64,000 bases of DNA from a virus (lineage: Duplodnaviria; Heunggongvirae; Uroviricota; Caudoviricetes): the IMG/VR virus record IMGVR_UViG_3300031759_000002. The stretch is one strand, 5' to 3'. This document shows positions 20,266 through 60,333 of the stretch, piece by piece. The first letter of the stretch is position 1. The number at the start of each line of letters is the position of its first letter. The translations under genes and the position numbers were made by a program. The notes under the pieces are model-generated. The model did no database searches. It was not told where the DNA came from and was given only the letters and a program-made list of their open reading frames with translations.

Positions 20266-20583
20266 ATGGCAAAAGAAAAAAATATAAATACAAAATCAAA
20301 ACATGTAGAAGTAGAGTCTAATGTTAATAGAGATGATTTAGCGTTGTTGCTACAAACCGCAATGAATAAGGCATCTAAAGATGGAACCAAAGTAGCATAT
20401 TTCGTAGATGAAGATGATAATCCATCCGAAATAAAAGAATGGGTATCAACCGGTTCAACTTTATTAGATTTGGCAATTTCTAATAGAGCACACGGAGGTC
20501 TACCTGTAGGTAGAGTGACCGAATTATCAGGATTAGAAGGCTGTGTTACGGAAGATACTTTAATTGAAGTTATTATTGAATAA
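20266..20583 (+). CDS. uvsX: UvsX/RecA recombinase N-fragment + 13-aa IntN (20542-20580)
   Basis: WVSTGSTLLDLAIS...GGLPVGRVTELSGLEG, then CVTEDTLIEVIIE*. Confidence 0.92.
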   Translation: MAKEKNINTKSKHVEVESNVNRDDLALLLQTAMNKASKDGTKVAYFVDEDDNPSEIKEWVSTGSTLLDLAISNRAHGGLPVGRVTELSGLEGCVTEDTLIEVIIE

Positions 20584-20630
20584 TTTTTATGTAGCCTGAT
20601 ATTTATATTATATTACCAATATTAAATATT

Positions 20631-21716
20631 ATGGCTAAAAAAGTAACAGATGCACAGACAATAGACACGATTATATCATCTATACACGATGGTTTAAGCG
20701 AAACGGAAATCTTCCAATTAAAAATTGGAAGAAAGCCTATTAGGAGAATTGCAAATGAATTTAATTTAGTTGATAAATTAAAATATAATAACATTAAATA
20801 TAAATCAAATCAACTTAGTGAATATGCGCTTGCTAAAAGAAATATAAAACTTATAGAATTAGATAAAATATATGGAATGTTAGTATTGGAATCCATTAAT
20901 AATGGAGGAATATTACAAGATGTTAAAAACATAATGAAAAATATTTCGCATAAGCAAGTTTTATATTTTTTAAAATATAAAAATTTAGATATACAGAGAA
21001 AAGAGAATTCTAAAAATTATATTAATATACAGTCTAAGATAAACGGAAGAAAAGCAATACCAATTACACGGGGAGTAGAATTAAAACCAATTACCTCAAA
21101 AATCATAAAGAGATTTGAGGAATTAAAACATAAGTTAAAATATAAACAGCAAGTTTATAATACATTGAAGAATGAATTTGGATTTGGAAGTGTAAAATGC
21201 AAGCAATTATGTGAAAAATACGGATATCCTAAAAATAATCCACAAACCGGACGGTTAAATCCGATGTATGGTAAATCGCCCGGAAAAAATGCAGGAATTG
21301 GAGTTAAGTGTTGGATATTAAACGATGGAATAAAATATTTTTGTAGATCTTCATTAGAATTGCGAATAATGTGTCATTTGATTTTTAACAATATTACATT
21401 CCAAATATCAAAACATAGAATAAAATATAAAGATGATATGGGAATTGGTCGAACATACTGTCCTGATATAGTAATAGGAAATTCGATTTATGAAATAAAA
21501 CCATATAATATGTTGCCAATTAGATTAAATGTGTTAAAATCAGAGGCATTAAAAGAATATTGTTCCAGATTTAATTTAAAATATGGAGGGTATTTGACGG
21601 AGAATGATATTGACATATCAAAATATGATATTAATTTTATATCGACTCTTATAAATTCTGGTAAAATAATAATAGACAATAAAAATTTAGAAAAATTAAA
21701 AAGAAATATTATATGA
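20631..21716 (+). CDS. free-standing endonuclease (TnsA-like PD-(D/E)xK) inside the split uvsX
   Basis: NPMYGK, CRSSLELR, RTYCPD...YEIKP; own ATATTTATA at 20599-20607. Confidence 0.78.
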   Translation: MAKKVTDAQTIDTIISSIHDGLSETEIFQLKIGRKPIRRIANEFNLVDKLKYNNIKYKSNQLSEYALAKRNIKLIELDKIYGMLVLESINNGGILQDVKNIMKNISHKQVLYFLKYKNLDIQRKENSKNYINIQSKINGRKAIPITRGVELKPITSKIIKRFEELKHKLKYKQQVYNTLKNEFGFGSVKCKQLCEKYGYPKNNPQTGRLNPMYGKSPGKNAGIGVKCWILNDGIKYFCRSSLELRIMCHLIFNNITFQISKHRIKYKDDMGIGRTYCPDIVIGNSIYEIKPYNMLPIRLNVLKSEALKEYCSRFNLKYGGYLTENDIDISKYDINFISTLINSGKIIIDNKNLEKLKRNII

Positions 21717-22990
21717 ATAAAAAAATAATAACTGTAGGAGAAGTAGATTCTCTCCTTAAAGAAGGAAAAACCATAAAAGTAAAAACATTGAATGGTGAAT
21801 ATACAAAAATAACCAGATTTGTTAATAAAGGTATATTGGATACATATTTAGTAACATTAGATAATGGAAAAACTATAAAAGTGAGTCGAGAACATAAGTT
21901 TTTTACAAATTCTGGATGGGTAGAATGTAAAGATATAATCCCTAATAAACATAGTATTTTATGTGATGATGAAACTTATAGTATAGTATTATCAGTTGCT
22001 TTAATTGGAAAATATAAAATTGTAGATATTACGGTCGAACATCCAGAACATTGTTATTTTGGAAATGGGATGCTAAATCATAACACCGGTAAATCTTTAA
22101 TGTGCGCTCATATTATTGCAGAAACAAGTAAACTTGGTGGATATAGTGTATTTTTTGATTCTGAGTTTGCAGTTGATAGAAAGTTTTGGACTGCGCTTGG
22201 AGTAAATGTTAAAAATACAAATTATGTTCCATTTACAACATTGGAAGATTTATTTACACATATAGAAACTTGTATAGGTGCTTTTAGAAAAGCAAATAAA
22301 GATAAATTATTAACTATTTTTATTGATTCAGTAGCACAAGCTACTATCGAAAAAGAACTTGAAGCAGAACATGGGATTGATGGATATAATACAGGAAAAT
22401 CCCTAATCTTAGGAAAGGCATTCCGAAAAATAACCGGTCTTATTGCTAAACAAAGAATCCTGATTGTATTTACTAATCAATTAAGATTTAATATGAATGC
22501 AGGTCCATTCGGAGACAAATGGACTACTCCCGGTGGAAAATCTTTAAGTTATGCGTGTTCTACCAGAGTAAGAATGGGAACCATTGGAAAATTGAAGAAA
22601 AATGATGAAGTAATTGGAGTAAAATGTACTTGTCAAGTTATTAAGAGTAGAATGGGACCGGGAGCACGAGGAGCACAATTTGAAATCCATTATGATTCCG
22701 GTATCCAAGATTTGGCAAGTTGGCTTAATTTCTCAAAAGAGCGTGGAATTATAACTGGAACTGCTGCTAAATATACATGGAAAAGAGCAAATGGAGAATC
22801 ATTGGAGTTTAATACTTCTAAGTTTGTAGAACTTATGAACTCTGATAAAGATCTTAAAGAAGAGTTTTATCAAGTGATTTGTAATGATTATATTATGAAT
22901 TATAGAGACCCTAATTCTAAAATTGTGGAAGACATTGAAGAAGTATCAGAGGAAGTTCCTCCTATTACTGAATCAAAATCAGAAGAATAA
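21713..22990 (+). CDS. uvsX: 124-aa IntC (21713-22084) + UvsX/RecA C-fragment
   Basis: Intein block B VSREH, block F VDITV, block G HN/T; then TGKS (Walker A), FIDSV (Walker B), FTNQLR, TTPGGK. Confidence 0.92.
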   Translation: MNKKIITVGEVDSLLKEGKTIKVKTLNGEYTKITRFVNKGILDTYLVTLDNGKTIKVSREHKFFTNSGWVECKDIIPNKHSILCDDETYSIVLSVALIGKYKIVDITVEHPEHCYFGNGMLNHNTGKSLMCAHIIAETSKLGGYSVFFDSEFAVDRKFWTALGVNVKNTNYVPFTTLEDLFTHIETCIGAFRKANKDKLLTIFIDSVAQATIEKELEAEHGIDGYNTGKSLILGKAFRKITGLIAKQRILIVFTNQLRFNMNAGPFGDKWTTPGGKSLSYACSTRVRMGTIGKLKKNDEVIGVKCTCQVIKSRMGPGARGAQFEIHYDSGIQDLASWLNFSKERGIITGTAAKYTWKRANGESLEFNTSKFVELMNSDKDLKEEFYQVICNDYIMNYRDPNSKIVEDIEEVSEEVPPITESKSEE

Positions 22991-25885: not shown

Positions 25886-26032
25886 ATATACCTTTTCTTT
25901 TATTGTTAATATTTAAGAACTTGGCGGACCTACATCCGATTTCGTATCTTACCTATAAGTATATATTAAAAATGAAAAATGTCAAATTATTTTAATATAA
26001 AAAAGTTTAATAAAATCCGGTTTTAAAAAAAG

Positions 26033-26061
26033 TTGAAAGATACTTATTTTTACTATAGACT
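26033..26061 (+). promoter_or_regulatory. sigma70-type promoter
   Basis: TTGAAA-N17-TAGACT-N8-ATG. Confidence 0.6.
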
Positions 26062-26069
26062 GTTAAACT

Positions 26070-27419
26070 ATGAATGAAGAATATAATAAAGTAGATACGT
26101 TAGCATCCCGACAATATGAAAAAGAGTTTCAAGCAAAAGTAATTTCAGTTCTAATTTCAGATAGGGCTTTTTTGGAGAGAATATATGATATATTAACTCC
26201 TGATTTTTTTGATACCGACCAACAAAAATGGATAGTTTCCAAAATCATAGACCACTGGAAACAGTATAAAGATACTCCTACTATGATGATTTTGGGACAA
26301 GAATGTAATTTAATTTCTGATAGTACCCTTCAAATGGCGGTAAAATCCCAGTTATTATCCGCTTTTAAAAATGCATCTGCTACCGATTTAACGTATGTTA
26401 AGGATAAGTTTTTAGAGTTTTGTAAGCATCAAAAATTAAAATCGGCAATTGCAGATTCATTAGAACTTCTTAAAAATCAAAAGTTTGATACTATTAAATT
26501 AAAGTTAGATGAAGCTCTTAAAGCTGGAATGGATAGAGATATTGGGGAAAATTATTTTGAGAGTTTTGAAACTAGGTCGTCTAAAGATACTCGATACACA
26601 ATAAAAACAAATCAACCAATTTTAGATAAATTGATGGATGGCGGATTGGGAAAGGGAGAATTGGGTATTATATGTGGAAATCCCGGTGGATGTAAAAGCT
26701 GGACATTGGTTAATTTTGGAGCGGAAGCACTTAAACAAGGAAAAAATGTTCTTCATTTTACCATGGAATTAAGTGCTGATTATACTGGTCACAGATATGA
26801 TTCTTATTTATCTGGCATTCCATTTCAAGAACGTCAAGCAAATAAGGCTAAAATAAAAGTAGCGTTGGATGCTACGAAGGCTAATGGGGCTGGCACTTTA
26901 TACATTAAATATTTTCCATTAAAAACAGCTACGGCTGATACTTTAAAAGCATTTACCGAACATCTTCAAATTGTCACCGGTATTCATATTGATATGTGGG
27001 TAGTTGACTATGTGGATTTGTTATTATCTTCGACTGCACCCAAAGGTTCTAAATCATATGAAGATGCCGGGGCAAAAAGCGAAGAGGTCAGGTCTGTATT
27101 AGGGTCACTCCAAATAGCCGGTTGGTCGGTCTCTCAGGCTAATCGGTGTTTGTCTTTACAAACTATTGTGAACGAAGAACTTAAAGGTAATATTAAAATC
27201 AAAAATATAATAGTTGGAGATAAGATATTAACACATAACGGATATAGAAAAGTATCTTATATATATCCTGTTAAAAAACAACCAGTGTATAGAATTACAT
27301 TGAAAAGTGGTAAAATTATAGAATGTTCTGAAAATCATAGGTTTCCAACACAATATGAAAAACTAAAAAGTATTATAAGTGGCTTATCTATAGGAGATAA
27401 ATTATTTACTAAAAAATGA
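26070..27419 (+). CDS. dnaB: replicative helicase (gp41/DnaB) N-fragment + 90-aa IntN (27147-27416)
   Basis: GGLGKGEL..GNPGGCKS, FTMEL, VVDYVDLL, SQANR, then CLSLQT...CSENH...KK*. Confidence 0.93.
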   Translation: MNEEYNKVDTLASRQYEKEFQAKVISVLISDRAFLERIYDILTPDFFDTDQQKWIVSKIIDHWKQYKDTPTMMILGQECNLISDSTLQMAVKSQLLSAFKNASATDLTYVKDKFLEFCKHQKLKSAIADSLELLKNQKFDTIKLKLDEALKAGMDRDIGENYFESFETRSSKDTRYTIKTNQPILDKLMDGGLGKGELGIICGNPGGCKSWTLVNFGAEALKQGKNVLHFTMELSADYTGHRYDSYLSGIPFQERQANKAKIKVALDATKANGAGTLYIKYFPLKTATADTLKAFTEHLQIVTGIHIDMWVVDYVDLLLSSTAPKGSKSYEDAGAKSEEVRSVLGSLQIAGWSVSQANRCLSLQTIVNEELKGNIKIKNIIVGDKILTHNGYRKVSYIYPVKKQPVYRITLKSGKIIECSENHRFPTQYEKLKSIISGLSIGDKLFTKK

Positions 27420-27452
27420 TGTTTTTGTGGTTACGGTCCATATTTATATAAT

Positions 27453-28511
27453 ATGAAAGAATTATATTACAAAAATAGAGAACATTTTTTATCACAAAAA
27501 TTTGCGGCTCCATTTAAGGCAATTTTAACTAATCACTCTTTATTGGAAATTGATAGTATAATAAAAATATTTAATAAAAATTATATTAGAAATATAAAAA
27601 AAGAAATGATAGTTAAATTATTAAAATATAATGTTGATGGAAGTTGGGTAAAGAGGTTGACCGAATCGAAAAAATTCGGAAAAGATGGATTTTCATTAGC
27701 ATCATTACAACATAGATATGGTGATTTAATCGGCAAACAAATATTTGAGGAGCAAAATAAAAAAATTACAGCACGAAATCAAAATTATACAGTGGAACAA
27801 AAAGAAATAATATCTAAAAGAAAAATATCTAATTTAGGATTGGATGGATATATTAAAAAATATGGAAAAGAAGAGGGTAAAATAAAATGGGAGAAATATT
27901 TAAAAAATTGGAAACTTGGAATTGAGAAACGAAAGCAAAAAGGAAAATGGAAAAATGGAAGGACGCTGCCGGAATTTCAAAGTAAATGGGGAGTAGAAGA
28001 TGGATATAAACGTTGGAGGGCATCATATGATAAAAGAAATCATACATTGTCACTAATAGGATTTATTGAAAGGTTTGGTTCGATTGAAGGGGTTGAGAAA
28101 TATTATAACCATATAGAAAAAATGGTTTCTAATTGTAGAGGTAAAAGTAATCCATACAGCAAAATATCACAAGAGTTGTTTAATAATATAACATCTAAAT
28201 TAGTATCTAAACAAAAAGAATTGGTAAAGTATTTTACCTATAATAAAGAACAATCATTTTTTGCCAATGGAAAATATGGATTAAACTTAATTTATGTTGA
28301 TTTTAAATGTGGGAATGCTATAATAGAGTTTGATGGTAGTTATTGGCATTCCTTCCCATCCATCATAGAAAAAGATAAGCGAAGAGATTTATTTTTAATA
28401 TCATTAGGATATAAAATATTAAGAATTCCAGAAGAAGAATATCTTAAAAATAAAGAAAAAGTAATTAAAAAATGTATTAGATTTGTAAATAAATATTATG
28501 AAAGAACATAA
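27453..28511 (+). CDS. free-standing Vsr-like homing endonuclease inside the split dnaB
   Basis: Repeated YIKKYG.EEG units, VDFKCGNAIIEFDGSYWH, ILRIPE; own ATATTTATA at 27440-27448. Confidence 0.85.
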   Translation: MKELYYKNREHFLSQKFAAPFKAILTNHSLLEIDSIIKIFNKNYIRNIKKEMIVKLLKYNVDGSWVKRLTESKKFGKDGFSLASLQHRYGDLIGKQIFEEQNKKITARNQNYTVEQKEIISKRKISNLGLDGYIKKYGKEEGKIKWEKYLKNWKLGIEKRKQKGKWKNGRTLPEFQSKWGVEDGYKRWRASYDKRNHTLSLIGFIERFGSIEGVEKYYNHIEKMVSNCRGKSNPYSKISQELFNNITSKLVSKQKELVKYFTYNKEQSFFANGKYGLNLIYVDFKCGNAIIEFDGSYWHSFPSIIEKDKRRDLFLISLGYKILRIPEEEYLKNKEKVIKKCIRFVNKYYERT

Positions 28512-28959
28512 ATTAAACACAGAAGAATTTAACCTTGATGAAATTGTTAGTATTGAGTGTATAGGAGATCAAGAAACTATTGATATTACAGTAGATGATA
28601 CTCATATGTTTTTTGCTAATGATATTTATACGCATAATAGTGCCGCTCAGAATGATATTATTGAAGGAGATGACATGGCGGAATCATATAAGAAGTTAAT
28701 GACTTCTGATTTTGTAGCTTCTCAAGCAAGAACAATGGATAATAAACTTACTAATACTGCTAAGTTCCATATTATTAAAAATCGATTTGGTCCCGATGGT
28801 AGTAGTTATATTTGTGATTTGGATGCAGCTACTGGGAGACTTGGAATGTATGAGATGGCTTCTATCGAAGGTATGGAACTTATTAATAAACTCAAAGGTC
28901 AAGAAGAAGCTCAAAAAGATATAATCCGTAAAAAATGGAATAAATCCAAAGGAGAATAA
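28498..28959 (+). CDS. dnaB: 47-aa IntC (28498-28638) + DnaB C-fragment
   Basis: TIDITVDDTHMFFANDIYTHN/S, then ESYKKLMTSDF, KNRFGPDG. Confidence 0.93.
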   Translation: MKEHKLNTEEFNLDEIVSIECIGDQETIDITVDDTHMFFANDIYTHNSAAQNDIIEGDDMAESYKKLMTSDFVASQARTMDNKLTNTAKFHIIKNRFGPDGSSYICDLDAATGRLGMYEMASIEGMELINKLKGQEEAQKDIIRKKWNKSKGE

Positions 28960-29018
28960 TTTATTTATTATAAAAATATAGATATAGTTATTACTACAAT
29001 AGTTTTTAAAAATAATTT

Positions 29019-30302
29019 ATGAATAAGATACCAAATATGTTAGATGAGATGGGAAACTTCACCTTTACTACAAAATATGCAAAATATGAAGAAAAGAAAA
29101 AGAGAAGAGAAACATGGGAAGAAACTGTATCCAGAGTAGAAAAAATGCATTTAAAAAAATACAGTTTTTTAAATGAAAAAGATAAATTGGAAATTGTAAG
29201 AGCATTTGATTTTGTACGTGAACGGAAAGTTACTCCCTCTATGCGTTCTATGCAATTTGGAGGAAAGGCTATAGAAGCTCATAACTGTAGAATGTTTAAT
29301 TGCGGAGTAAGACATATAGATTCTATTCGTGCTTTTGCGGAGTCTTTTTATGCATTATTATGTGGGACTGGTATTGGATTTGGATTAACTAAACGATTTC
29401 TAAATCGTCTTCCTGCATTGGTAAATGCCAACGATAAAACTGGAACTATTATTACATATGTAGTACAAGATTCGATTGAAGGATGGTCCGATAGTATCGA
29501 AGCATTGTTAAATTGTTATTTTAAAAATACAGCATATTCCGGAAGAAAAATTGTATTTGATTATAGTAAAATAAGACCAAAAGGAGCAAAACTTAAAACG
29601 GGTGGTGGTAAAGCCCCCGGTTATAAAGGACTTAAAAATTGTCATAAAAAAGTAAAAGAATTATTAGATGAAATTATTGAAAAGGACCACCAAGTACGAC
29701 TTAAGCCTATAAATGCATATGATATACTTATGCATTGTGCCGATGCTGTTTTAAGTGGAGGAATTAGAAGAAGTGCATGTAGCGTGATATTCGATGCAGA
29801 CGATGATGAAATGATGAATGCCAAAACTGGTAACTGGTTTGATAAAAATCCACAGAGAGCCAGAAGTAATAATTCAGCCATCATTGTCCGTGGAAGAACT
29901 ACATTCAAAGAATTTAAATTGTTAATAGAAAAAACAAAACAATTTGGAGAACCTGGATTTCTCTATGTCGTCGATGAACGTCAATTATTAAACCCTTGTG
30001 TAACAGGAGATACATTGGTATCTACTACTAAAGGAGATATTAGAATAGACGAATTGGTAGAACGATACAACAACGGGGAAAAGTTTGATGCAATATCATA
30101 TAATATAGAAACTCGTTCTTTAGAAAATAATGAAATAACAATGGCTATGAAAACCCGTGAAAATGCAGAAATATTAGAAATCCAAGGAGAAAATGGAGAA
30201 GTTCTGAAATTAACTCCGGACCATAAGGTATTTGTGGAGGGACGTGGATGGATAGAGGCAAAGGATTTGACAGAGACTGATATTTTATTAAAAATAAATT
30301 GA
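29019..30302 (+). CDS. nrdJ: class II (B12) ribonucleotide reductase part 1 + 101-aa IntN-1 (29997-30299)
   Basis: KYA...RRETWEETVSR, PSMRSMQFGG, FNC, GGIRRSA, GEPG, LLNP, then CVTGDT...LTPDH...IN*. Confidence 0.93.
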   Translation: MNKIPNMLDEMGNFTFTTKYAKYEEKKKRRETWEETVSRVEKMHLKKYSFLNEKDKLEIVRAFDFVRERKVTPSMRSMQFGGKAIEAHNCRMFNCGVRHIDSIRAFAESFYALLCGTGIGFGLTKRFLNRLPALVNANDKTGTIITYVVQDSIEGWSDSIEALLNCYFKNTAYSGRKIVFDYSKIRPKGAKLKTGGGKAPGYKGLKNCHKKVKELLDEIIEKDHQVRLKPINAYDILMHCADAVLSGGIRRSACSVIFDADDDEMMNAKTGNWFDKNPQRARSNNSAIIVRGRTTFKEFKLLIEKTKQFGEPGFLYVVDERQLLNPCVTGDTLVSTTKGDIRIDELVERYNNGEKFDAISYNIETRSLENNEITMAMKTRENAEILEIQGENGEVLKLTPDHKVFVEGRGWIEAKDLTETDILLKIN

Positions 30303-30432
30303 TTTTATAAATCCCATATAATATTTACGATAGAGGAAAACAGGATATATTTACGGAATATCCTATAATTACAATTAGAAATATAAAAGATTATTTAACA
30401 ACAGGAAGTAGTTTAAGAAAAGAATTAAAATT

Positions 30433-31281
30433 ATGGAAACAAAACAGAATAAAAAAATTACCAGAATTAAAATAAAAAAAATAACGGTTCGTCCAAATGA
30501 AGATGTATATGATATATCTGTAAAGAATAATCATAATTTTTTTGCTAATAATATTTTAATACATAACTGCTTCGAAATTTCATTTATTCCAGTAACCGAT
30601 GATGGGCGTTGTGGATTCCAAATGTGTAATTTAACTTCCATAAATGGAGCAAAAATAACTTCCAGTGATAAGTTTAAAGACGCTACTTGGGCGGCTACTT
30701 TAATAGGAACTTTACAAGCTGGATATACTTCATTTCCATATTTAGGACATACTTCCGAGGAATTGTCAAATAACGAAGCATTATTAGGAGTTTCTATAAC
30801 TGGAATGATGGATAATCCTGATATATTATTCAATCCAGAGTTTCAGAAACAATCTGCCAAAGTAGCAGTCGAAACTAATAAAATATGGGCTAAGAAAATA
30901 GGCATAAATCAAGCGGCAAGAATTACATGTATAAAACCTGAAGGTTGTGTTGTTCCCGAGACTATTATAAAAACTTCTATCGGAGATAAAACTTTATCGG
31001 AATTGTTTGAGATAAATGGATATAAATTAGAAGATTATGAAAATTTAAATGAAAAACAATTTTTACCTGTAACTTCTAAGATTATGGTTAAAGATGAGAA
31101 TAATGATTGGCAATATATTACAAAGTTATATATAAATGGAGTATCCGATACTATAGATGTGGAAATGGATGATGGAACTATTGTTACAACTACTCCAAAT
31201 CATAAATTTTTAGTTAAAGGTCGGGGATATGTAGAAGCGAGAAATCTAGAAAAAAACGATGATATTTTATCATTTGACTGA
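30433..31281 (+). CDS. nrdJ: 45-aa IntC-1 + NrdJ part 2 (126 aa) + 111-aa IntN-2 (30946-31278)
   Basis: YDISV..HNFFANNILIHN/CFE; CNLTSIN, TLQAGYT, LLGVSITG, TCIKPEG; then CVVPET...TTPNH. Confidence 0.93.
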   Translation: METKQNKKITRIKIKKITVRPNEDVYDISVKNNHNFFANNILIHNCFEISFIPVTDDGRCGFQMCNLTSINGAKITSSDKFKDATWAATLIGTLQAGYTSFPYLGHTSEELSNNEALLGVSITGMMDNPDILFNPEFQKQSAKVAVETNKIWAKKIGINQAARITCIKPEGCVVPETIIKTSIGDKTLSELFEINGYKLEDYENLNEKQFLPVTSKIMVKDENNDWQYITKLYINGVSDTIDVEMDDGTIVTTTPNHKFLVKGRGYVEARNLEKNDDILSFD

Positions 31282-31300
31282 TATTTATATGTATTAAGTC

Positions 31301-32299
31301 ATGTGTAATATATGGTTTAATACACGTTTAATGAAAACTAAAAACACAAAATTATTAAGATTAAAGAGGTTTTTAATTCATAAATATGGACTGATTATTG
31401 GAACTAAGCGATTTAAGACATATTCATGCACTCATTCTGAACGAATGTATATATTTAAATTTGGAAAATGTGACGGTATTAAAAAATATAAAGAATATAC
31501 TGAAAAGTTAAAACCAAGAGGAACGTTGCCATATTATATTAAAAAATACGGAGAAGTCGATGGAACTAAAAAATATAAAGAAAAAAATAGAAAATTATCG
31601 GTGTCGGAAGAATCTTTAAGGTTGAATGGATATTCTGAAGATGATATAAAAAATATAAAGAATATACATTCTAAAAAATCATCTTTAAATATGGAAAATT
31701 GTGTTCGTATATATGGAGCCGATGCAAAATTTAAAATTGAAGAATGGAAGCGAAATCGAGTATGTGTTAGGAAAGTCGATGATTGGGTTTTAAAAAAAGG
31801 AAAGTCATTGATTGAGGCAACGGAATTAGTTAAAAAATATCAAAGTAGAGATTTGAATTTTTTTATTTGTAAATATGGAGATACGGATGGAAAAATAAAA
31901 TGGCGTGAATATATAGATAGTAAAATGAATTGTTTTTTTGGAGAGTCGAAGTCACAATTACAATTTTCAAAATTATTATATATGTCGTTATCGGATGATT
32001 TGAAGTATTTGTTTAGAGGATGTCCAATTACTAATTCGGAAGTTATTGTATTTGAGGACAATCCATATAATTTAAAATATTGTGTGCCAGATGTTGTAAT
32101 ATCCAATATCATAATAGAATTTGATGGGGAATATTGGCATAACATGGAACATATAAAAGAGCGTGATATTGTCAAAGAGTTTTTACTACAGTCGAAAAAA
32201 TATGTCATATTACGAGTAAAAGAAAAACAATTTAAAAAGAATATAACCGAAACGATAGAACAAGTTATAGATCAGATAAATACAAATATAAAATTATGA
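31301..32299 (+). CDS. free-standing Vsr-like homing endonuclease inside the second nrdJ split
   Basis: YIKKYGEVDG repeats, VPD..IIEFDGEYWH, ILRVKE; ATATTTATA at 31281-31289. Confidence 0.85.
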   Translation: MCNIWFNTRLMKTKNTKLLRLKRFLIHKYGLIIGTKRFKTYSCTHSERMYIFKFGKCDGIKKYKEYTEKLKPRGTLPYYIKKYGEVDGTKKYKEKNRKLSVSEESLRLNGYSEDDIKNIKNIHSKKSSLNMENCVRIYGADAKFKIEEWKRNRVCVRKVDDWVLKKGKSLIEATELVKKYQSRDLNFFICKYGDTDGKIKWREYIDSKMNCFFGESKSQLQFSKLLYMSLSDDLKYLFRGCPITNSEVIVFEDNPYNLKYCVPDVVISNIIIEFDGEYWHNMEHIKERDIVKEFLLQSKKYVILRVKEKQFKKNITETIEQVIDQINTNIKL

Positions 32300-33003
32300 A
32301 AATAAAATCAATAAAAACTGGAATGCGTAAATTAACAGTAGATATAGAAGTTGATAAAACGCATACTTATCAATTAAAAAATGGAACAGTAACACATAAT
32401 ACTAATAGCATTGTTTTATCAGCCGCATCCGGAATACATCCACATCATTCTAGGCGCTATCTTAGAAGAATACAAGTTAATAAAGAAGATAATGTATATA
32501 AATATTTTAAATTATTTAATGAACATGCTTGTGAAGAAAGTGTTTGGAGCGAAAATAAAACGGATGATGTTATTACATTTCCAATAGAAGTTCCGGAAAA
32601 TGTAAAAATTAAAGCTGATTTATCGGCAATAGAACATTTAAGACTTATTAAATTAACCCAAGAAAATTGGGTTAATTCTGGAACTACAAGTGTAAATACT
32701 AAGCCATTAAACCACAGTGTTAGTTGTACGGTTATGGTAAAAGATGAAGAGTGGGATGATGTTACCAAGTTTTTATTTGATAATCAAAAGGATTTTACCG
32801 CAGTTTCTCTATTGCCTTTTACGGGTGATAAAATTTACAAACAGCCTCCTATGGAAGCCGTTATAACAGATGAAGAAAATGCAAAGTTTGACGAGTTGTT
32901 AAAAAATTGGTCTATGGTCGATTATAAAAAACTAGAAGAAGACGACGACGAGACACAACATACTGCCGAAGCAAGCTGTGCTAATGGAAAATGTATAATT
33001 TAA
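32296..33003 (+). CDS. nrdJ: 35-aa IntC-2 (32296-32400) + NrdJ part 3
   Basis: VDIEVDKTHTYQL..VTHN/T, then SAASGIHP, YLRRIQ, HSVSCTV, QPPMEAV, C-terminal CANGKC. Confidence 0.93.
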   Translation: MKIKSIKTGMRKLTVDIEVDKTHTYQLKNGTVTHNTNSIVLSAASGIHPHHSRRYLRRIQVNKEDNVYKYFKLFNEHACEESVWSENKTDDVITFPIEVPENVKIKADLSAIEHLRLIKLTQENWVNSGTTSVNTKPLNHSVSCTVMVKDEEWDDVTKFLFDNQKDFTAVSLLPFTGDKIYKQPPMEAVITDEENAKFDELLKNWSMVDYKKLEEDDDETQHTAEASCANGKCII

Positions 33004-33026
33004 TATATAAAAGTTAAAGGTTTGAC

Positions 33027-33061
33027 ATTCAATCATATATTTATATAGTATATGATTGAAT
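33027..33061 (+). promoter_or_regulatory. 13-bp hairpin burying ATG 33052, late motif at arm/loop
   Basis: ATTCAATCATATA (33027-33039)/TATATGATTGAAT (33049-33061); ATATTTATA at 33037-33045. Confidence 0.75.
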
Positions 33062-33441
33062 ATACTCCAATTTTAAAAACCGGTATTCCCGCCATAATAA
33101 CCGGCGTTGCCGCATATTTAATTGCCGTTAAAAAAACCAATTCTTCCGAGAAGAAACAAAAAGCAAAATCCGATGCCGAAGTTCAACTTCAAGCATTGAA
33201 TATCGTCAAGGGGGTCATTGACACTATGAAAGCTGAGTTTTTAAGAGAAATTGAGGGGCTTAATGCTAGAATAGATGAATTAATAAGTGAAAACGTAAAA
33301 TTAAAGAAAAGCATGGCAGATTTGGATGCTCAATTAGTAACAAGTGGAAAATTATCGGCAACTTTACAGGAGGAAATCACTTCTTTACAACGCAGTTTAA
33401 TGGCATATAAAGAAGAAAATGATAAGTTAAAGAATCAATAA
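33052..33441 (+). CDS. membrane-anchored coiled-coil protein (holin-like, unproven)
   Basis: N-terminal hydrophobic helix GIPAIITGVAAYLIAV followed by a long heptad coiled coil. Confidence 0.55.
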   Translation: MIEYTPILKTGIPAIITGVAAYLIAVKKTNSSEKKQKAKSDAEVQLQALNIVKGVIDTMKAEFLREIEGLNARIDELISENVKLKKSMADLDAQLVTSGKLSATLQEEITSLQRSLMAYKEENDKLKNQ

Positions 33442-33449
33442 ATGACTAT

Positions 33450-33767
33450 ATGACTGGTTATTTTTTAAACAGAAAATATCATGCTGCTATATTAGGAACT
33501 GGCGGCAGTGTAACCAATATTATCACCATGCTTACATCGTTATATCAAAATAATATAGTAATTGAGATTTATAATAATAGTAAAGATTTATTTGAAGCTA
33601 TAAACCTAAGTAAAAGTACAAATAAACCATTTGATATGGCATATTTAGACGAGACTAATAATTTTGCAGAAAAACTTATATTAAAACAGACAGTTCCAAG
33701 TTTGAAAATATTCACGTATTGTAAAGAAGATATTAAAAAAAGTGTTGATAACCGAGCTTTTGCTTAA
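33450..33767 (+). CDS. hypothetical protein, possible degenerate receiver-like fold
   Basis: AINLSKSTNKPFDMAYLD resembles the receiver beta3 motif. Confidence 0.4.
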   Translation: MTGYFLNRKYHAAILGTGGSVTNIITMLTSLYQNNIVIEIYNNSKDLFEAINLSKSTNKPFDMAYLDETNNFAEKLILKQTVPSLKIFTYCKEDIKKSVDNRAFA

Positions 33768-57281: not shown

Positions 57282-58298
57282 ATGTCATATAAAATAAATG
57301 GGAAAATTATAAATAAGAAGCTTATTCACCATGTCCCACATGGGATTTCATCGGAAACTTTTCATCCGGTAGCGGCAACCGATCCAAAGTTAATAGAGTT
57401 TAAACGTAAATTATTTCAAGGAAAAGATTATAATTTCGTTCTATTTTTAAATTCTAGAAATATTAACCGAAAACGAATAAGCAATGCAATTCTAGCATAT
57501 AGACAATTTTGTGACAGTTTAACTAAAGAAGAAGCATCCAAGTGTTTGTTTATTATTCACTCGGAAATAATTTTAGATGCCGGAACTAATAATATTGCAG
57601 TAAAAGAAGCATTATGTCCTAATTACAATATTATATTTTCTCCCGGTAAGGTTTCGCCCGAAGAATTGAACTTGTTATATAATAGCGTTGATGTTACTGT
57701 GTGTGCGTCTTCAAGTGAAGGATTCGGATTATCAACGGCTGAAAGTATAATGGCAGGAACTCCTATTATTGCAACTGTAACTGGAGGTCTTCAGGACCAG
57801 ATGAACTTCGTGGATGATAATGGAAATCAAATTGAGTTTACCGGAAATTGGGGAAGTAATAGTGATGGTAAAGTTAAGAAATGTGGACGATGGGCGTATC
57901 CAGTATATCCAGTAGCCCGTTACGTTCAAGGAAGCCCTCCTACTCCTTACATATTTGATGAAATGACAAGATGGGAAGATTTTGGAGTTGGATTTATGTA
58001 TTGGTATATGACACCCCATAAAACCAGAGAACATTATGGAAAAGAAGGAAGAGAATGGATGTTAAGTTCAACGGGTCTCTCGGAAAAAAGAATGGGTAAA
58101 GAGTTTATTACTACTATGGAGTTTGTATTTTCTAATTGGGTTAAACCAAAGTCATTTGGAGTATTTTCAATTAAAGATTATATTGGTAATATCACAACCA
58201 GAGAACAAGTTGGATTTGAAATACCCAAAATTGATAGAGATGAAATGAAATCTAAAATAGAAAGTATTAAAAATGAGACACATTCTATAAAAAGTTGA
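57282..58298 (+). CDS. GT-B (GT4-like) glycosyltransferase, C-terminal domain
   Basis: HHVPHG, FLNSRNINRK, LYNSVD, SSEGFGLSTAESIMAGTP, TGGLQDQ. Confidence 0.85.
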   Translation: MSYKINGKIINKKLIHHVPHGISSETFHPVAATDPKLIEFKRKLFQGKDYNFVLFLNSRNINRKRISNAILAYRQFCDSLTKEEASKCLFIIHSEIILDAGTNNIAVKEALCPNYNIIFSPGKVSPEELNLLYNSVDVTVCASSSEGFGLSTAESIMAGTPIIATVTGGLQDQMNFVDDNGNQIEFTGNWGSNSDGKVKKCGRWAYPVYPVARYVQGSPPTPYIFDEMTRWEDFGVGFMYWYMTPHKTREHYGKEGREWMLSSTGLSEKRMGKEFITTMEFVFSNWVKPKSFGVFSIKDYIGNITTREQVGFEIPKIDRDEMKSKIESIKNETHSIKS

Positions 58299-58322
58299 AT
58301 GTTTTCACAAAATGGTTATACT
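58295..58322 (+). promoter_or_regulatory. sigma70-type promoter
   Basis: TTGAAT-N16-TATACT-N8-ATG. Confidence 0.65.
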
Positions 58323-58330
58323 ATGTGAAT

Positions 58331-58837
58331 ATGATTGAACTTAAAAAGACAGATGTAAATGCGGTTGTTCCAACTAGAGGAACATCATATGCCGCAGGAT
58401 ATGACTTATATAGTATTGAAAGTTATGAACTCCAGCCATTGGAACGAAAACTGTTTAAAACTGGTATAAATATAGCAATTCCAACGGGATTATTTGGAAG
58501 AATATCTCCCCGCAGTGGATTATCTTTTAAAAATGGGATTGATGTGTTAGGTGGCACGATAGATTGTTTTTCGGGGGATTGTACTATTAAGACTGAAAAG
58601 GGTCAAAAATTTATAGAAGAATTGAGAATAAATGATATTGTATATTCAGTTAATGAAAATTTAGAATTGGAGCGAGATTTTGTATCTGCTATAGTATCTT
58701 TAGGAGATAAAGAATTATTAGCAATAGAAACTGATGATGATTATATAGAAATAACACCGGGTACTCAAGTATATACCGAAACTGGAATAAAACGTGCCGA
58801 CGAACTAAAATTAGGTGAAAAAATATTACACTTTTAA
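58331..58837 (+). CDS. dut: dUTPase N-fragment + 90-aa IntN (58565-58834)
   Basis: AAGYDL, KTG, RISPRSG, GGTID, then CFSGDC...ITPGT...GEKILHF*. Confidence 0.92.
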   Translation: MIELKKTDVNAVVPTRGTSYAAGYDLYSIESYELQPLERKLFKTGINIAIPTGLFGRISPRSGLSFKNGIDVLGGTIDCFSGDCTIKTEKGQKFIEELRINDIVYSVNENLELERDFVSAIVSLGDKELLAIETDDDYIEITPGTQVYTETGIKRADELKLGEKILHF

Positions 58838-58842
58838 TGAAT

Positions 58843-58891
58843 TTTCCCTTTGTAATCGCTATTTATACATAGATAATGATTACTAAGGAAA
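58843..58891 (+). promoter_or_regulatory. hairpin burying the endonuclease SD, late motif in the loop
   Basis: TTTCCCTTTGTAATC/GATTACTAAGGAAA, 13 bp with one bulge and one mismatch; CTATTTATA at 58859-58867. Confidence 0.6.
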
Positions 58892-58895
58892 TATT

Positions 58896-59798
58896 ATGAT
58901 AAAATGTGAAATATGCGGACATACGACAAATAGAAGATTAATAGACCATATTATTAAAACTCATAAATTATCAGTTGATGTTTATAAAAAAACATATGGT
59001 CCAGTCGTTTCAGATGAAGAACAGAAAAGAATAAGTAAAATGATGGAGGAAAATTGGAAAAATCCATTATATAGAAATAAAACTAATGCTTCTCGAAAGA
59101 CAAAATGGACTACAGAGTTAAAAGAACGACAGAGTAAAATAATTAAAAAAACATATGAAGAAGGTCATAAAAATTGGAATATTGGTCTAACTAAAGAAAT
59201 TGACGACCGAGTTAGGTTAATTGGAGAGAAAAATAAAAAACACTTAACTGGAAGGACGAAAGAAATATATCCATATTTACAAAAGCATTCGGAGTTTATG
59301 AAGCAAAATTATAATAAATATTGGGGAGAAGAAGGGGGGTGTACTAAATATTTTAGAGACGAAGATAATTTCGAAATATGGAGGAATAAAATATCCAAAA
59401 CATTGGCGGATAAATGTAAATCTGGAGAATTGGATTTTGTATCTAATCATTTTAAAACTGGATATTATAAAAATATTTTTTATGCAAGTGGATTGGAGTT
59501 AGAGGCTATGACAATATTCGACTCTAATGAAAATATAAAAACTTGGCGAAGAAACTTCGATGTGATAGAATATATTGATTGTGAAGGAAAAATGCGAAGA
59601 TATTTACCCGATTTTGAGTTGATATTAAATACAGGAAGACGAATAGTAATTGAGATGAAGGGGTTTCCAGATAAAAATTTAATAGAAAAAACATTAGCGG
59701 CTAAATTAAAATATAACAATGACTTTTATGTATGTTATTCCAAAACAGAATTAAAAACTATAATAAATGAAATTATCAACAATAAAATCAATAAGTAA
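58896..59798 (+). CDS. free-standing TnsA-like endonuclease inside the split dut
   Basis: CEIC...HI...H, ASGLELE, RRYLPDF...IEMKG. Confidence 0.78.
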   Translation: MIKCEICGHTTNRRLIDHIIKTHKLSVDVYKKTYGPVVSDEEQKRISKMMEENWKNPLYRNKTNASRKTKWTTELKERQSKIIKKTYEEGHKNWNIGLTKEIDDRVRLIGEKNKKHLTGRTKEIYPYLQKHSEFMKQNYNKYWGEEGGCTKYFRDEDNFEIWRNKISKTLADKCKSGELDFVSNHFKTGYYKNIFYASGLELEAMTIFDSNENIKTWRRNFDVIEYIDCEGKMRRYLPDFELILNTGRRIVIEMKGFPDKNLIEKTLAAKLKYNNDFYVCYSKTELKTIINEIINNKINK

Positions 59799-60333
59799 AG
59801 TTAAAAAAAAGACATATGATATAACAGTAGAGAATAATCATAATTTTTTTTGTAATGATTTTTTAATACATAACTGCGATTATCGTGGAGAAATAAAAGT
59901 TATTCTAATAAATCTTGGAAAAGAGCCATATAAAATTAATATTGGAGATAAAATGGCTCAAATTATATTTTCGGCATATACTGTTCACGAGTTTAAATTA
60001 GTCGATGAATTATCACAGACCGAACGAGCAGAAAAAGGATTTGGAAGTACTGATATTAAACCAGAACCAATTCCATCAGTTAAGTCGATTGATAAATTAG
60101 ATGCGGCAATTGATTTATCGAAACAATATGATAAAAATATAATATCAATAACCAAAGAATCTATTGGAGCAGTTGACCTTAATGTTAAGGGATTCGTAAC
60201 ACATAATAATACATTACCAATTCCTCCCCGAACCAATTCTGATATTATCGAAGAGTATAAAAAACACGGTGGAAATATTTCTCATATTAAACCATATGAG
60301 GAACAAATACGAGAAAAGATGAAAAGTTTATGA
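59767..60333 (+). CDS. dut: 36-aa IntC (59767-59874) + dUTPase C-fragment
   Basis: YDITVENNHNFFCNDFLIHN/C, then DYRGEIKVIL, GDKMAQ, RAEKGFGST. Confidence 0.92.
   Translation: MKLSTIKSISKVKKKTYDITVENNHNFFCNDFLIHNCDYRGEIKVILINLGKEPYKINIGDKMAQIIFSAYTVHEFKLVDELSQTERAEKGFGSTDIKPEPIPSVKSIDKLDAAIDLSKQYDKNIISITKESIGAVDLNVKGFVTHNNTLPIPPRTNSDIIEEYKKHGGNISHIKPYEEQIREKMKSL

Follow-up and report, generated by a model that had tools for sequence, protein, structure and literature searches.

How can a phage make a working ribonucleotide reductase (RNR) when the gene for it lies in three separate pieces? This question is raised by positions 29019-33003 of the window, a 64,000-nucleotide stretch of DNA taken from IMG/VR record IMGVR_UViG_3300031759_000002. 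The record, of 353,772 bp and judged complete, belongs to an uncultured phage of the Caudoviricetes. Four consecutive open reading frames (ORFs) occupy the + strand of the locus, and ORF1, ORF2 and ORF4 encode pieces of the reductase gene nrdJ. Very probably, two split mini-inteins, each an independent mobile element, have fractured a monomeric RTPR-like nrdJ gene, and two trans-splicing reactions would rebuild the enzyme. A first-pass annotation of the window, made from the letters alone, had proposed three polypeptides and two split inteins, and the boundaries that we obtained from the ORF list and from alignment equal its numbers exactly. Its description of the middle ORF as an adaptor is likewise correct, as this ORF carries the C-terminal half of intein 1 (IntC-1) and the N-terminal half of intein 2 (IntN-2). 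It had omitted ORF3, an endonuclease gene (31301-32299) located between IntN-2 and IntC-2. The parts of the locus are as follows.

29019-30302, + strand: ORF1, 427 amino acids (aa), a 326-aa N-extein followed by the 101-aa IntN-1
29019-29996, + strand: N-extein of NrdJ, 326 aa, ending ...QLLNP, with the Pfam domains RNR_Alpha and RNR-II_ins_dom
29997-30302, + strand: IntN-1, 101 aa, CVTGDTL...LLKIN and then a TGA stop, matching PF14890 (E 5e-12)
30303-30432, + strand: spacer of 130 nt without an ORF
30433-31281, + strand: ORF2, 282 aa, the 45-aa IntC-1 followed by a 126-aa middle extein and the 111-aa IntN-2
30433-30567, + strand: IntC-1, 45 aa, ending VYDISVKNNHNFFANNILIHN (also given as NHNFFANNILIHN), matching PF14890
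30568-30945, + strand: middle extein, 126 aa, from the thiyl-loop CFEISF to CIKPEG, gap-free against uninterrupted homologues
30946-31281, + strand: IntN-2, 111 aa, CVVPETI...ILSFD and then a TGA stop, the second stretch of ORF2 that matches PF14890
31301-32299, + strand: ORF3, 332 aa, a free-standing Vsr-like homing endonuclease inside intein 2
32296-33003, + strand: ORF4, 235 aa, the 35-aa IntC-2 followed by a 200-aa C-extein
32296-32400, + strand: IntC-2, 35 aa, MKIKSIKTGMRKLTVDIEVDKTHTYQLKNGTVTHN, ending THTYQLKNGTVTHN
32401-33003, + strand: C-extein, 200 aa, TNSIVL...CANGKCII and then a TAA stop

At both sites the halves of the intein lie in separate ORFs, with the 130-nt spacer between them at site 1 and the endonuclease gene between them at site 2. 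ORF1 and ORF2 have TGA stops and are in differing frames, and the stop of ORF3 and the start of ORF4 share an ATGA overlap. The Pfam family Intein_splicing (PF14890) matches residues 340-424 of ORF1 (E 5e-12) and two stretches of ORF2 (E 2e-13). The masses of the three precursor polypeptides are 48.8, 31.8 and 27.0 kDa. Sixteen contigs are recorded with an identical middle protein, which means that the three-piece layout is not an accident of assembly.

When the exteins are joined, the result is a protein of 652 aa and 74.0 kDa. Its two junctions, LLNP/CFEISF and IKPEG/TNSIV (the slash marks the insertion site), align without a gap to uninterrupted homologues that are 60-82% identical. Over the three exteins, identity to the closest uninterrupted relative (L001; locus numbers of this kind denote the other loci compared here) is 82, 79 and 74%. 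Among solved structures, the monomeric L. leichmannii enzyme (1L1L) matches best, in agreement with the earlier claim of a 652-aa monomeric NrdJ-like product. In 1L1L, residues 25-81 and 216-379 are matched by the N-extein and residues 557-737 by the C-extein, with CANGKC aligned to the C-terminal CEGGAC cysteine pair; a profile of the homologues aligns the KPxGT region with 1L1L and leaves the NPC loop unaligned. Pfam finds the class II RNR insertion domain PF21995 (E 8e-10) and PF17975 in ORF1, and PF02867 fails to detect this divergent reductase clade. Judged by these sequence matches, the joined exteins are a class II ribonucleotide reductase of the monomeric RTPR-like type, with predicted use of adenosylcobalamin. 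In one of the related loci, a cob(I)alamin adenosyltransferase gene (PF01923; L088:7787-8320) is found directly downstream of the three-piece nrdJ, a neighbour in keeping with the use of adenosylcobalamin by enzymes of this clade.

All three ORFs are intact, and the catalytic motifs of an RNR are all present among them (NPCxE, KPEGT and the C-terminal CxxxxC). Joining restores the N-P-C-x-E motif, the four named residues of which do not vary within the family. The N-P-C-x-E loop of RNRs carries the thiyl-radical cysteine, which is Cys408 in RTPR and Cys439 in E. coli NrdA. From the motif and prior knowledge we take the cysteine at the NP/C junction of this locus to be the equivalent of Cys408. 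The first-pass annotation held that this same cysteine is the +1 nucleophile of intein 1, and the gap-free alignment of the junction and the invariant motif bear this out. Since the first junction falls directly before the thiyl-radical cysteine, the separate pieces and any unspliced complexes of them should be inactive. Searching the whole genome, we detected no other RNR, neither a class I large or small subunit (PF00268) nor a class III enzyme, and PF21995 matches only this locus. The three-piece nrdJ is the only recognisable RNR of the phage. The lack of a small-subunit gene agrees with a B12-type enzyme that works without a beta subunit.

We aligned each intein half of the window with its counterparts from 10-11 other loci, which are 34-67% identical overall to the window. 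Eleven loci show no variation at C1, T73, P74 and H76 of IntN-1, where block B of the window reads TPDH, and 12 loci show none at C1, T83 and H86 of IntN-2, where it reads TPNH. As to the C-terminal halves, D27 (block F), H44 and N45 are invariant in IntC-1, with a +1 Cys in 11 of 12 loci and Ser once, and D16 (block F), H34 and N35 are invariant in IntC-2, where the +1 residue is Thr or Ser in the 12 loci and Thr in the window. Both inteins hold every canonical splicing residue, namely Cys1, TxxH, Asp, His-Asn and the +1 nucleophile.

Intein 1 has a solved homologue, the NrdJ-1 split intein of PDB entry 8UBS (E 5.7e-12 for IntN-1 and 2.9e-6 for IntC-1). It is inserted before the cysteine (NP/C), and the site of the NrdJ-1 allele (NPC/S) is one residue downstream, so that intein 1 would best be described as a NrdJ-1 homologue at a neighbouring site, a different allele. 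In L019, L083, L085 and L087, members of the intein 1 family occur one residue further downstream than in the window, at NPC/C or NPC/S, which is the published NrdJ-1 site. Set beside the NP/C junction of the window, these loci indicate one intein family at two adjacent insertion sites. From the homology to NrdJ-1 we infer that IntN-1 and IntC-1 associate with each other.

Intein 2, inserted at KPEG/T, has no close solved relative, and the PDB matches of IntN-2 are weak (E 0.05 or worse). For this intein we modeled the complex of IntN-2 and IntC-2, which gave an ipSAE of 0.73 against 0.00 for the best of 3 controls. In a benchmark whose counts apply only roughly here, the model having been built from our own alignments, 58 of 80 solved complexes attained this value, as did 2 of 110 mismatched pairs. 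At least 95% of contacts are shared between the model runs, and the partner pLDDT is at least 71. The model supports binding between IntN-2 and IntC-2, and since solved split-intein complexes exist, its passing may reflect likeness to them.

In the mechanism that we propose, IntN-1 would pair with IntC-1 and IntN-2 with IntC-2, each pair rebuilding a HINT domain. Within each domain, an acyl shift at Cys1 would be followed by trans-(thio)esterification to the +1 residue, Cys or Thr, and Asn cyclisation and then acyl rearrangement would finish the reaction. Whichever of the two splicing reactions came first, the product would be one enzyme of 652 aa and 74 kDa, with both junctions (LLNP-CFEISF and IKPEG-TNSIV) native.

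A working three-piece assembly of this kind requires the two inteins to be orthogonal. The first-pass annotation had pointed out that pairing of IntN-1 with IntC-2 would skip the middle piece, and this is indeed what such a cross-reaction would do, with a predicted product of 60.3 kDa. IntC-1 and IntN-2 are located on one chain, and a cross-reaction between them would circularise the 13.7-kDa middle extein, a stricter constraint that the first-pass annotation had overlooked; the layout of ORF2 (IntC-1 ... IntN-2) is the topology used for intein-mediated peptide cyclisation. The two IntN halves of the window are 29.5% identical to each other and its two IntC halves 35%. Across the loci the halves form two distinct families, with within-site identity of ~40% for IntN and 57-61% for IntC, and between-site identity of 27% and 35%, respectively. 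By analogy with other inteins, orthogonality of intein 1 and intein 2 is a strong expectation.

The fractured gene is not peculiar to this phage. The first-pass annotation had suggested that phage genomes be searched for other nrdJ genes split at two sites, and the two-site split does occur elsewhere, in at least 9 further metagenomic loci and in 13 other protein clusters. The cluster counts come from a survey of the 120 protein clusters that best matched the middle piece: 14 of the 120 have the IntC...IntN architecture, one of the 14 being the window's own protein, and another 38 carry IntC-1 only, which is the two-piece form split at site 1. The complete three-piece layout, with the same two sites, is present in L081, L082, L083, L085, L086 and L088, and partially in L087. 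Several three-piece loci, including L081-L083, also have in common with the window the gene order RecA/UvsX, exonuclease, DnaB helicase and nrdJ pieces. In three loci, nrdJ is in four pieces (L002:3063-7609, L084:2585-7179 and L089:2455-6942). In L002 and L084 the additional break is made by a third split intein, which follows residue ~116 of the N-extein, and in L089 the additional break lies near residue 250; of the three breaks in L002, a single one contains an endonuclease gene. Splits at a single site also occur, at site 2 only in L008 and L011 and at site 1 only in L019 and L031. The nearest relatives of the window gene are unsplit (L001) or split at site 1 only (P0005, P0006 and P0011), which suggests that the two elements have been gained or lost independently.

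When we searched a collection of 50,697 phage records, we found nothing similar at the nucleotide level, and at the protein level we found uninterrupted nrdJ only, with no record covering at least 80% of the middle piece. From these searches, no cultured phage in the collection has the layout. In the searchable literature we found engineered examples only and no natural gene that two split inteins divide into three pieces, which does not prove novelty. The first-pass annotation called natural three-piece protein trans-splicing rare, and this stands for the searchable literature but not for nature, considering the 9 or more loci, the 13 clusters and the four-piece versions.

The two breaks of the window gene differ in their endonucleases. 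ORF3, at site 2, matches DUF559 with 23.0 bits (cut-off 20.6) and MTES_1575 with E 3.5e-6 in Pfam. Its orthologues are found at the same position in L008, L081, L082, L083 and L085 (33-36% identity), and other loci have GIY-YIG or HNH genes, or no gene, at this position. With 26% identity (E 1e-17), ORF3 is also a paralogue of the endonuclease in the adjacent upstream helicase gene. At site 1 there is the spacer, and its 3' part (~30356-30442), extending into the start of ORF2, contains about 29 codons that match the extreme C-termini of site-1 endonucleases of other loci by tblastn, with E values, in a small search space, of 4.5e-5 (L089), 1.4e-4 (L002) and 2.5e-4 (L081). This C-terminal remnant indicates that an endonuclease at site 1 was deleted and that its tail was retained. 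Intein 2 still has its free-standing Vsr-like homing endonuclease gene, and intein 1 has lost its own, with the tail remaining. In the gene-breaking model that Dassa et al. put forward (PMC2677866), such a deletion is step III.

The site-1 endonuclease genes of five relatives (L002:5135-5956, L081:4312-5052, L085:4178-5026, L088:4145-5014 and L089:4241-5023) encode one family, with 33-49% identity and without a confident Pfam match. The only matches of this family, weak ones to Phage_endo_I and DUF790, point to a possible PD-(D/E)xK-type nuclease that has a helix-turn-helix at its N-terminus. The 130-nt spacer of the window has no match to an Rfam family, its RNA fold has a z-score of 0.0 relative to shuffles, and a 7-bp hairpin in it is not significant. 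A scan for sigma-70 promoters and terminators gave a number of sites no higher than in shuffled sequences.

Several points weigh against the reading that two splicing reactions restore an active reductase. Splicing and reductase activity are inferred from sequence, both here and for any multiply split nrdJ, and the phage could in principle depend on a host RNR instead. The middle extein on its own has no sequence match in the PDB, and IntC-2 on its own has no Pfam match and a best PDB match of E 0.3. Both IntN halves have a net charge of -9 and the IntC halves have +5 and +4, and both IntC halves start with a basic K-I-K-x-I strand. The sequences offer no simple ground for orthogonality, and with a shared charge polarity and a similar IntC strand, cross-pairing is possible, leading to skipping or cyclisation of the middle piece. 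A rival reading is that the three pieces assemble non-covalently, the intein halves being mere dimerisation domains and no peptide bonds being formed. The NrdA of Aeromonas phage Aeh1 is a precedent, a fragmented phage RNR reported to be functional without splicing (PMC3045599), and the IntN-2/IntC-2 model indicates likely association, not chemistry. Yet the splicing residues are invariant in both inteins at 34-67% identity, which is unexpected for a pure docking module, and an unexcised 146-aa intein before the thiyl-radical cysteine would occupy the finger loop of the active site. We consider assembly without splicing very unlikely.

It is just as improbable, in our estimation, that selfish elements have overrun an nrdJ which is now decaying and without function, with the phage using the deoxynucleotide synthesis of its host. 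The window does have many endonuclease genes, at least four of its genes are fractured, and some intein-interrupted phage nrd genes have been suggested to be degenerating (PMC3653736). Against decay, the three ORFs are intact and have all catalytic RNR motifs, many divergent phages have kept this split layout, and no second RNR was detected in the genome. Repair at the level of RNA or translation, by a group I or II intron or by read-through or recoding of stop codons, has next to no chance of being correct. Both ORF1 and ORF2 end in TGA, a stop that could be read through, but their frames differ, a TAA follows 22 codons after the TGA of ORF1, and the intein halves make no sense in a continuous reading. 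An intron is opposed by the lack of any Rfam family in 26000-33500 at E up to 1, and RNA splicing by the fold of the spacer, which is no better than shuffles. Protein trans-splicing by the two split inteins is the reading that we retain.

Other genes of this phage are interrupted as well. A DnaB/gp41-type helicase gene at 26070-28959 of the window is fractured likewise, a RecA/UvsX gene at 20266-22990 is split with an atypically early break, and a dUTPase gene at 58295-60333 is split by another intein. Their parts are as follows.

26070-27419: N piece of the helicase with an IntN
27453-28511: Vsr-like endonuclease of the helicase gene, the paralogue of nrdJ ORF3
28498-28959: IntC and C piece of the helicase
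20266-20583: short N piece of RecA/UvsX, with a weak RecA match
20631-21716: unannotated 361-aa ORF in the RecA/UvsX break
21713-22990: C piece of RecA/UvsX, starting with most of an intein (PF14890 positions 24-89), followed by the RecA core
58295-58837: N piece of the dUTPase, with a Hint-like end
58896-59798: endonuclease-like ORF of the dUTPase gene
59767-60333: IntC and C piece of the dUTPase

Outside the window, at C1:297618-298979, we noted a 1424-aa open frame in which one contiguous intein is complete (PF14890 positions 1-155, E 6e-19) and a second intein match is partial. The phage therefore has both contiguous and split inteins.

Split inteins from fractured phage genes, such as gp41-1, NrdJ-1 and IMPDH-1, are standard tools of protein engineering. 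Ordered ligation of multiple fragments requires sets of inteins that do not cross-react. If the trans-splicing reading is true, three-piece and four-piece ligations are run in nature on an essential enzyme, across the region bearing its active site, which would imply selected orthogonality and provide new pairs to test. The gene-breaking model would be extended to one gene that is invaded repeatedly, with each intein gaining or losing its endonuclease independently, and the only RNR of the phage would remain dependent on protein splicing. We can imagine, while leaning slightly against it, that natural selection has made co-resident inteins orthogonal, that multi-piece nrdJ loci are in effect a natural library of pre-validated orthogonal sets, including the so-far uncharacterised intein 2 family (35-aa IntC, Thr+1, KPEG/T), and that the requirement for all pieces could gate the stoichiometry or timing of deoxynucleoside triphosphate synthesis during infection. 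The locus is of use mainly for two things, the orthogonal split-intein pairs that it could supply from nature and the example that it gives of an essential gene invaded repeatedly.

The closest known systems are the 'fractured genes' described by Dassa, London, Stoddard, Schueler-Furman and Pietrokovski in 2009 (PMC2677866), which include the NrdJ-1 and NrdJ-2 loci and with which the Vsr-like endonuclease family was first described. Like those loci, the one studied here is a phage-type nrdJ broken by a split intein, with its pieces on one strand and a free-standing Vsr-like (DUF559) endonuclease between IntN and IntC, in this case at site 2. Site 1 resembles the published endonuclease-free locus gp41-7 (PMC2677866), keeping in addition the remnant of about 29 codons. 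The enzymes of Dassa et al. are each 'fractured in two', whereas here there are three pieces and two different split inteins; the one extra IntC half that they report is in a DnaE locus only. The layout is a doubled form of their fractured gene in which one endonuclease has been lost, recurrent in environmental phages. As to the sites, the one adjoining the thiyl-radical cysteine is the commonest intein site in RNRs (PMC2677866). The NP/C position of intein 1 is what Dassa et al. class as the NrdA-type site, and the NrdJ-1 site NPC/S follows it one residue downstream; the KPEG/T site of intein 2 is unmentioned in the main text of that paper.

Intein 1 and NrdJ-1 (8UBS and 9OMB) share the C-half pattern VYDI..NHNFFAN..L.HN, an acidic IntN and a basic IntC. 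They differ in the +1 residue, which is Cys, the thiyl-radical cysteine itself, in intein 1 and Ser in NrdJ-1. Two sources (PMC7090010; bioRxiv 10.64898/2026.03.03.709324) present NrdJ-1 as an ultra-fast tool for trans-splicing.

RNR genes with several contiguous inteins are also comparable, RNR being a hot spot for inteins and endonucleases, but in the window both inteins are split into separately translated halves, so that three chains would be joined in trans. In the Aeh1 NrdA (PMC3045599), the halves are reported to be separated by the mobE endonuclease gene and to assemble without splicing; here, in contrast, the full splicing machinery is present. The nearest parallel to a gene in three pieces is an engineered one. 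Pinto et al. 2020 (PMC7090010) carried out one-pot ligation of multiple fragments with orthogonal split inteins, NrdJ-1 among them, and such engineered work shows that cross-reaction within this group of inteins is unusual and that several fragments can be assembled in one pot with them. As in their design, the internal block of the window locus starts with an IntC and ends with the IntN of another intein. Theirs is an engineered arrangement in which mutually orthogonal inteins bring about an ordered assembly, and the one described here is natural, lies in the active-site region of an enzyme and is expected to be orthogonal.

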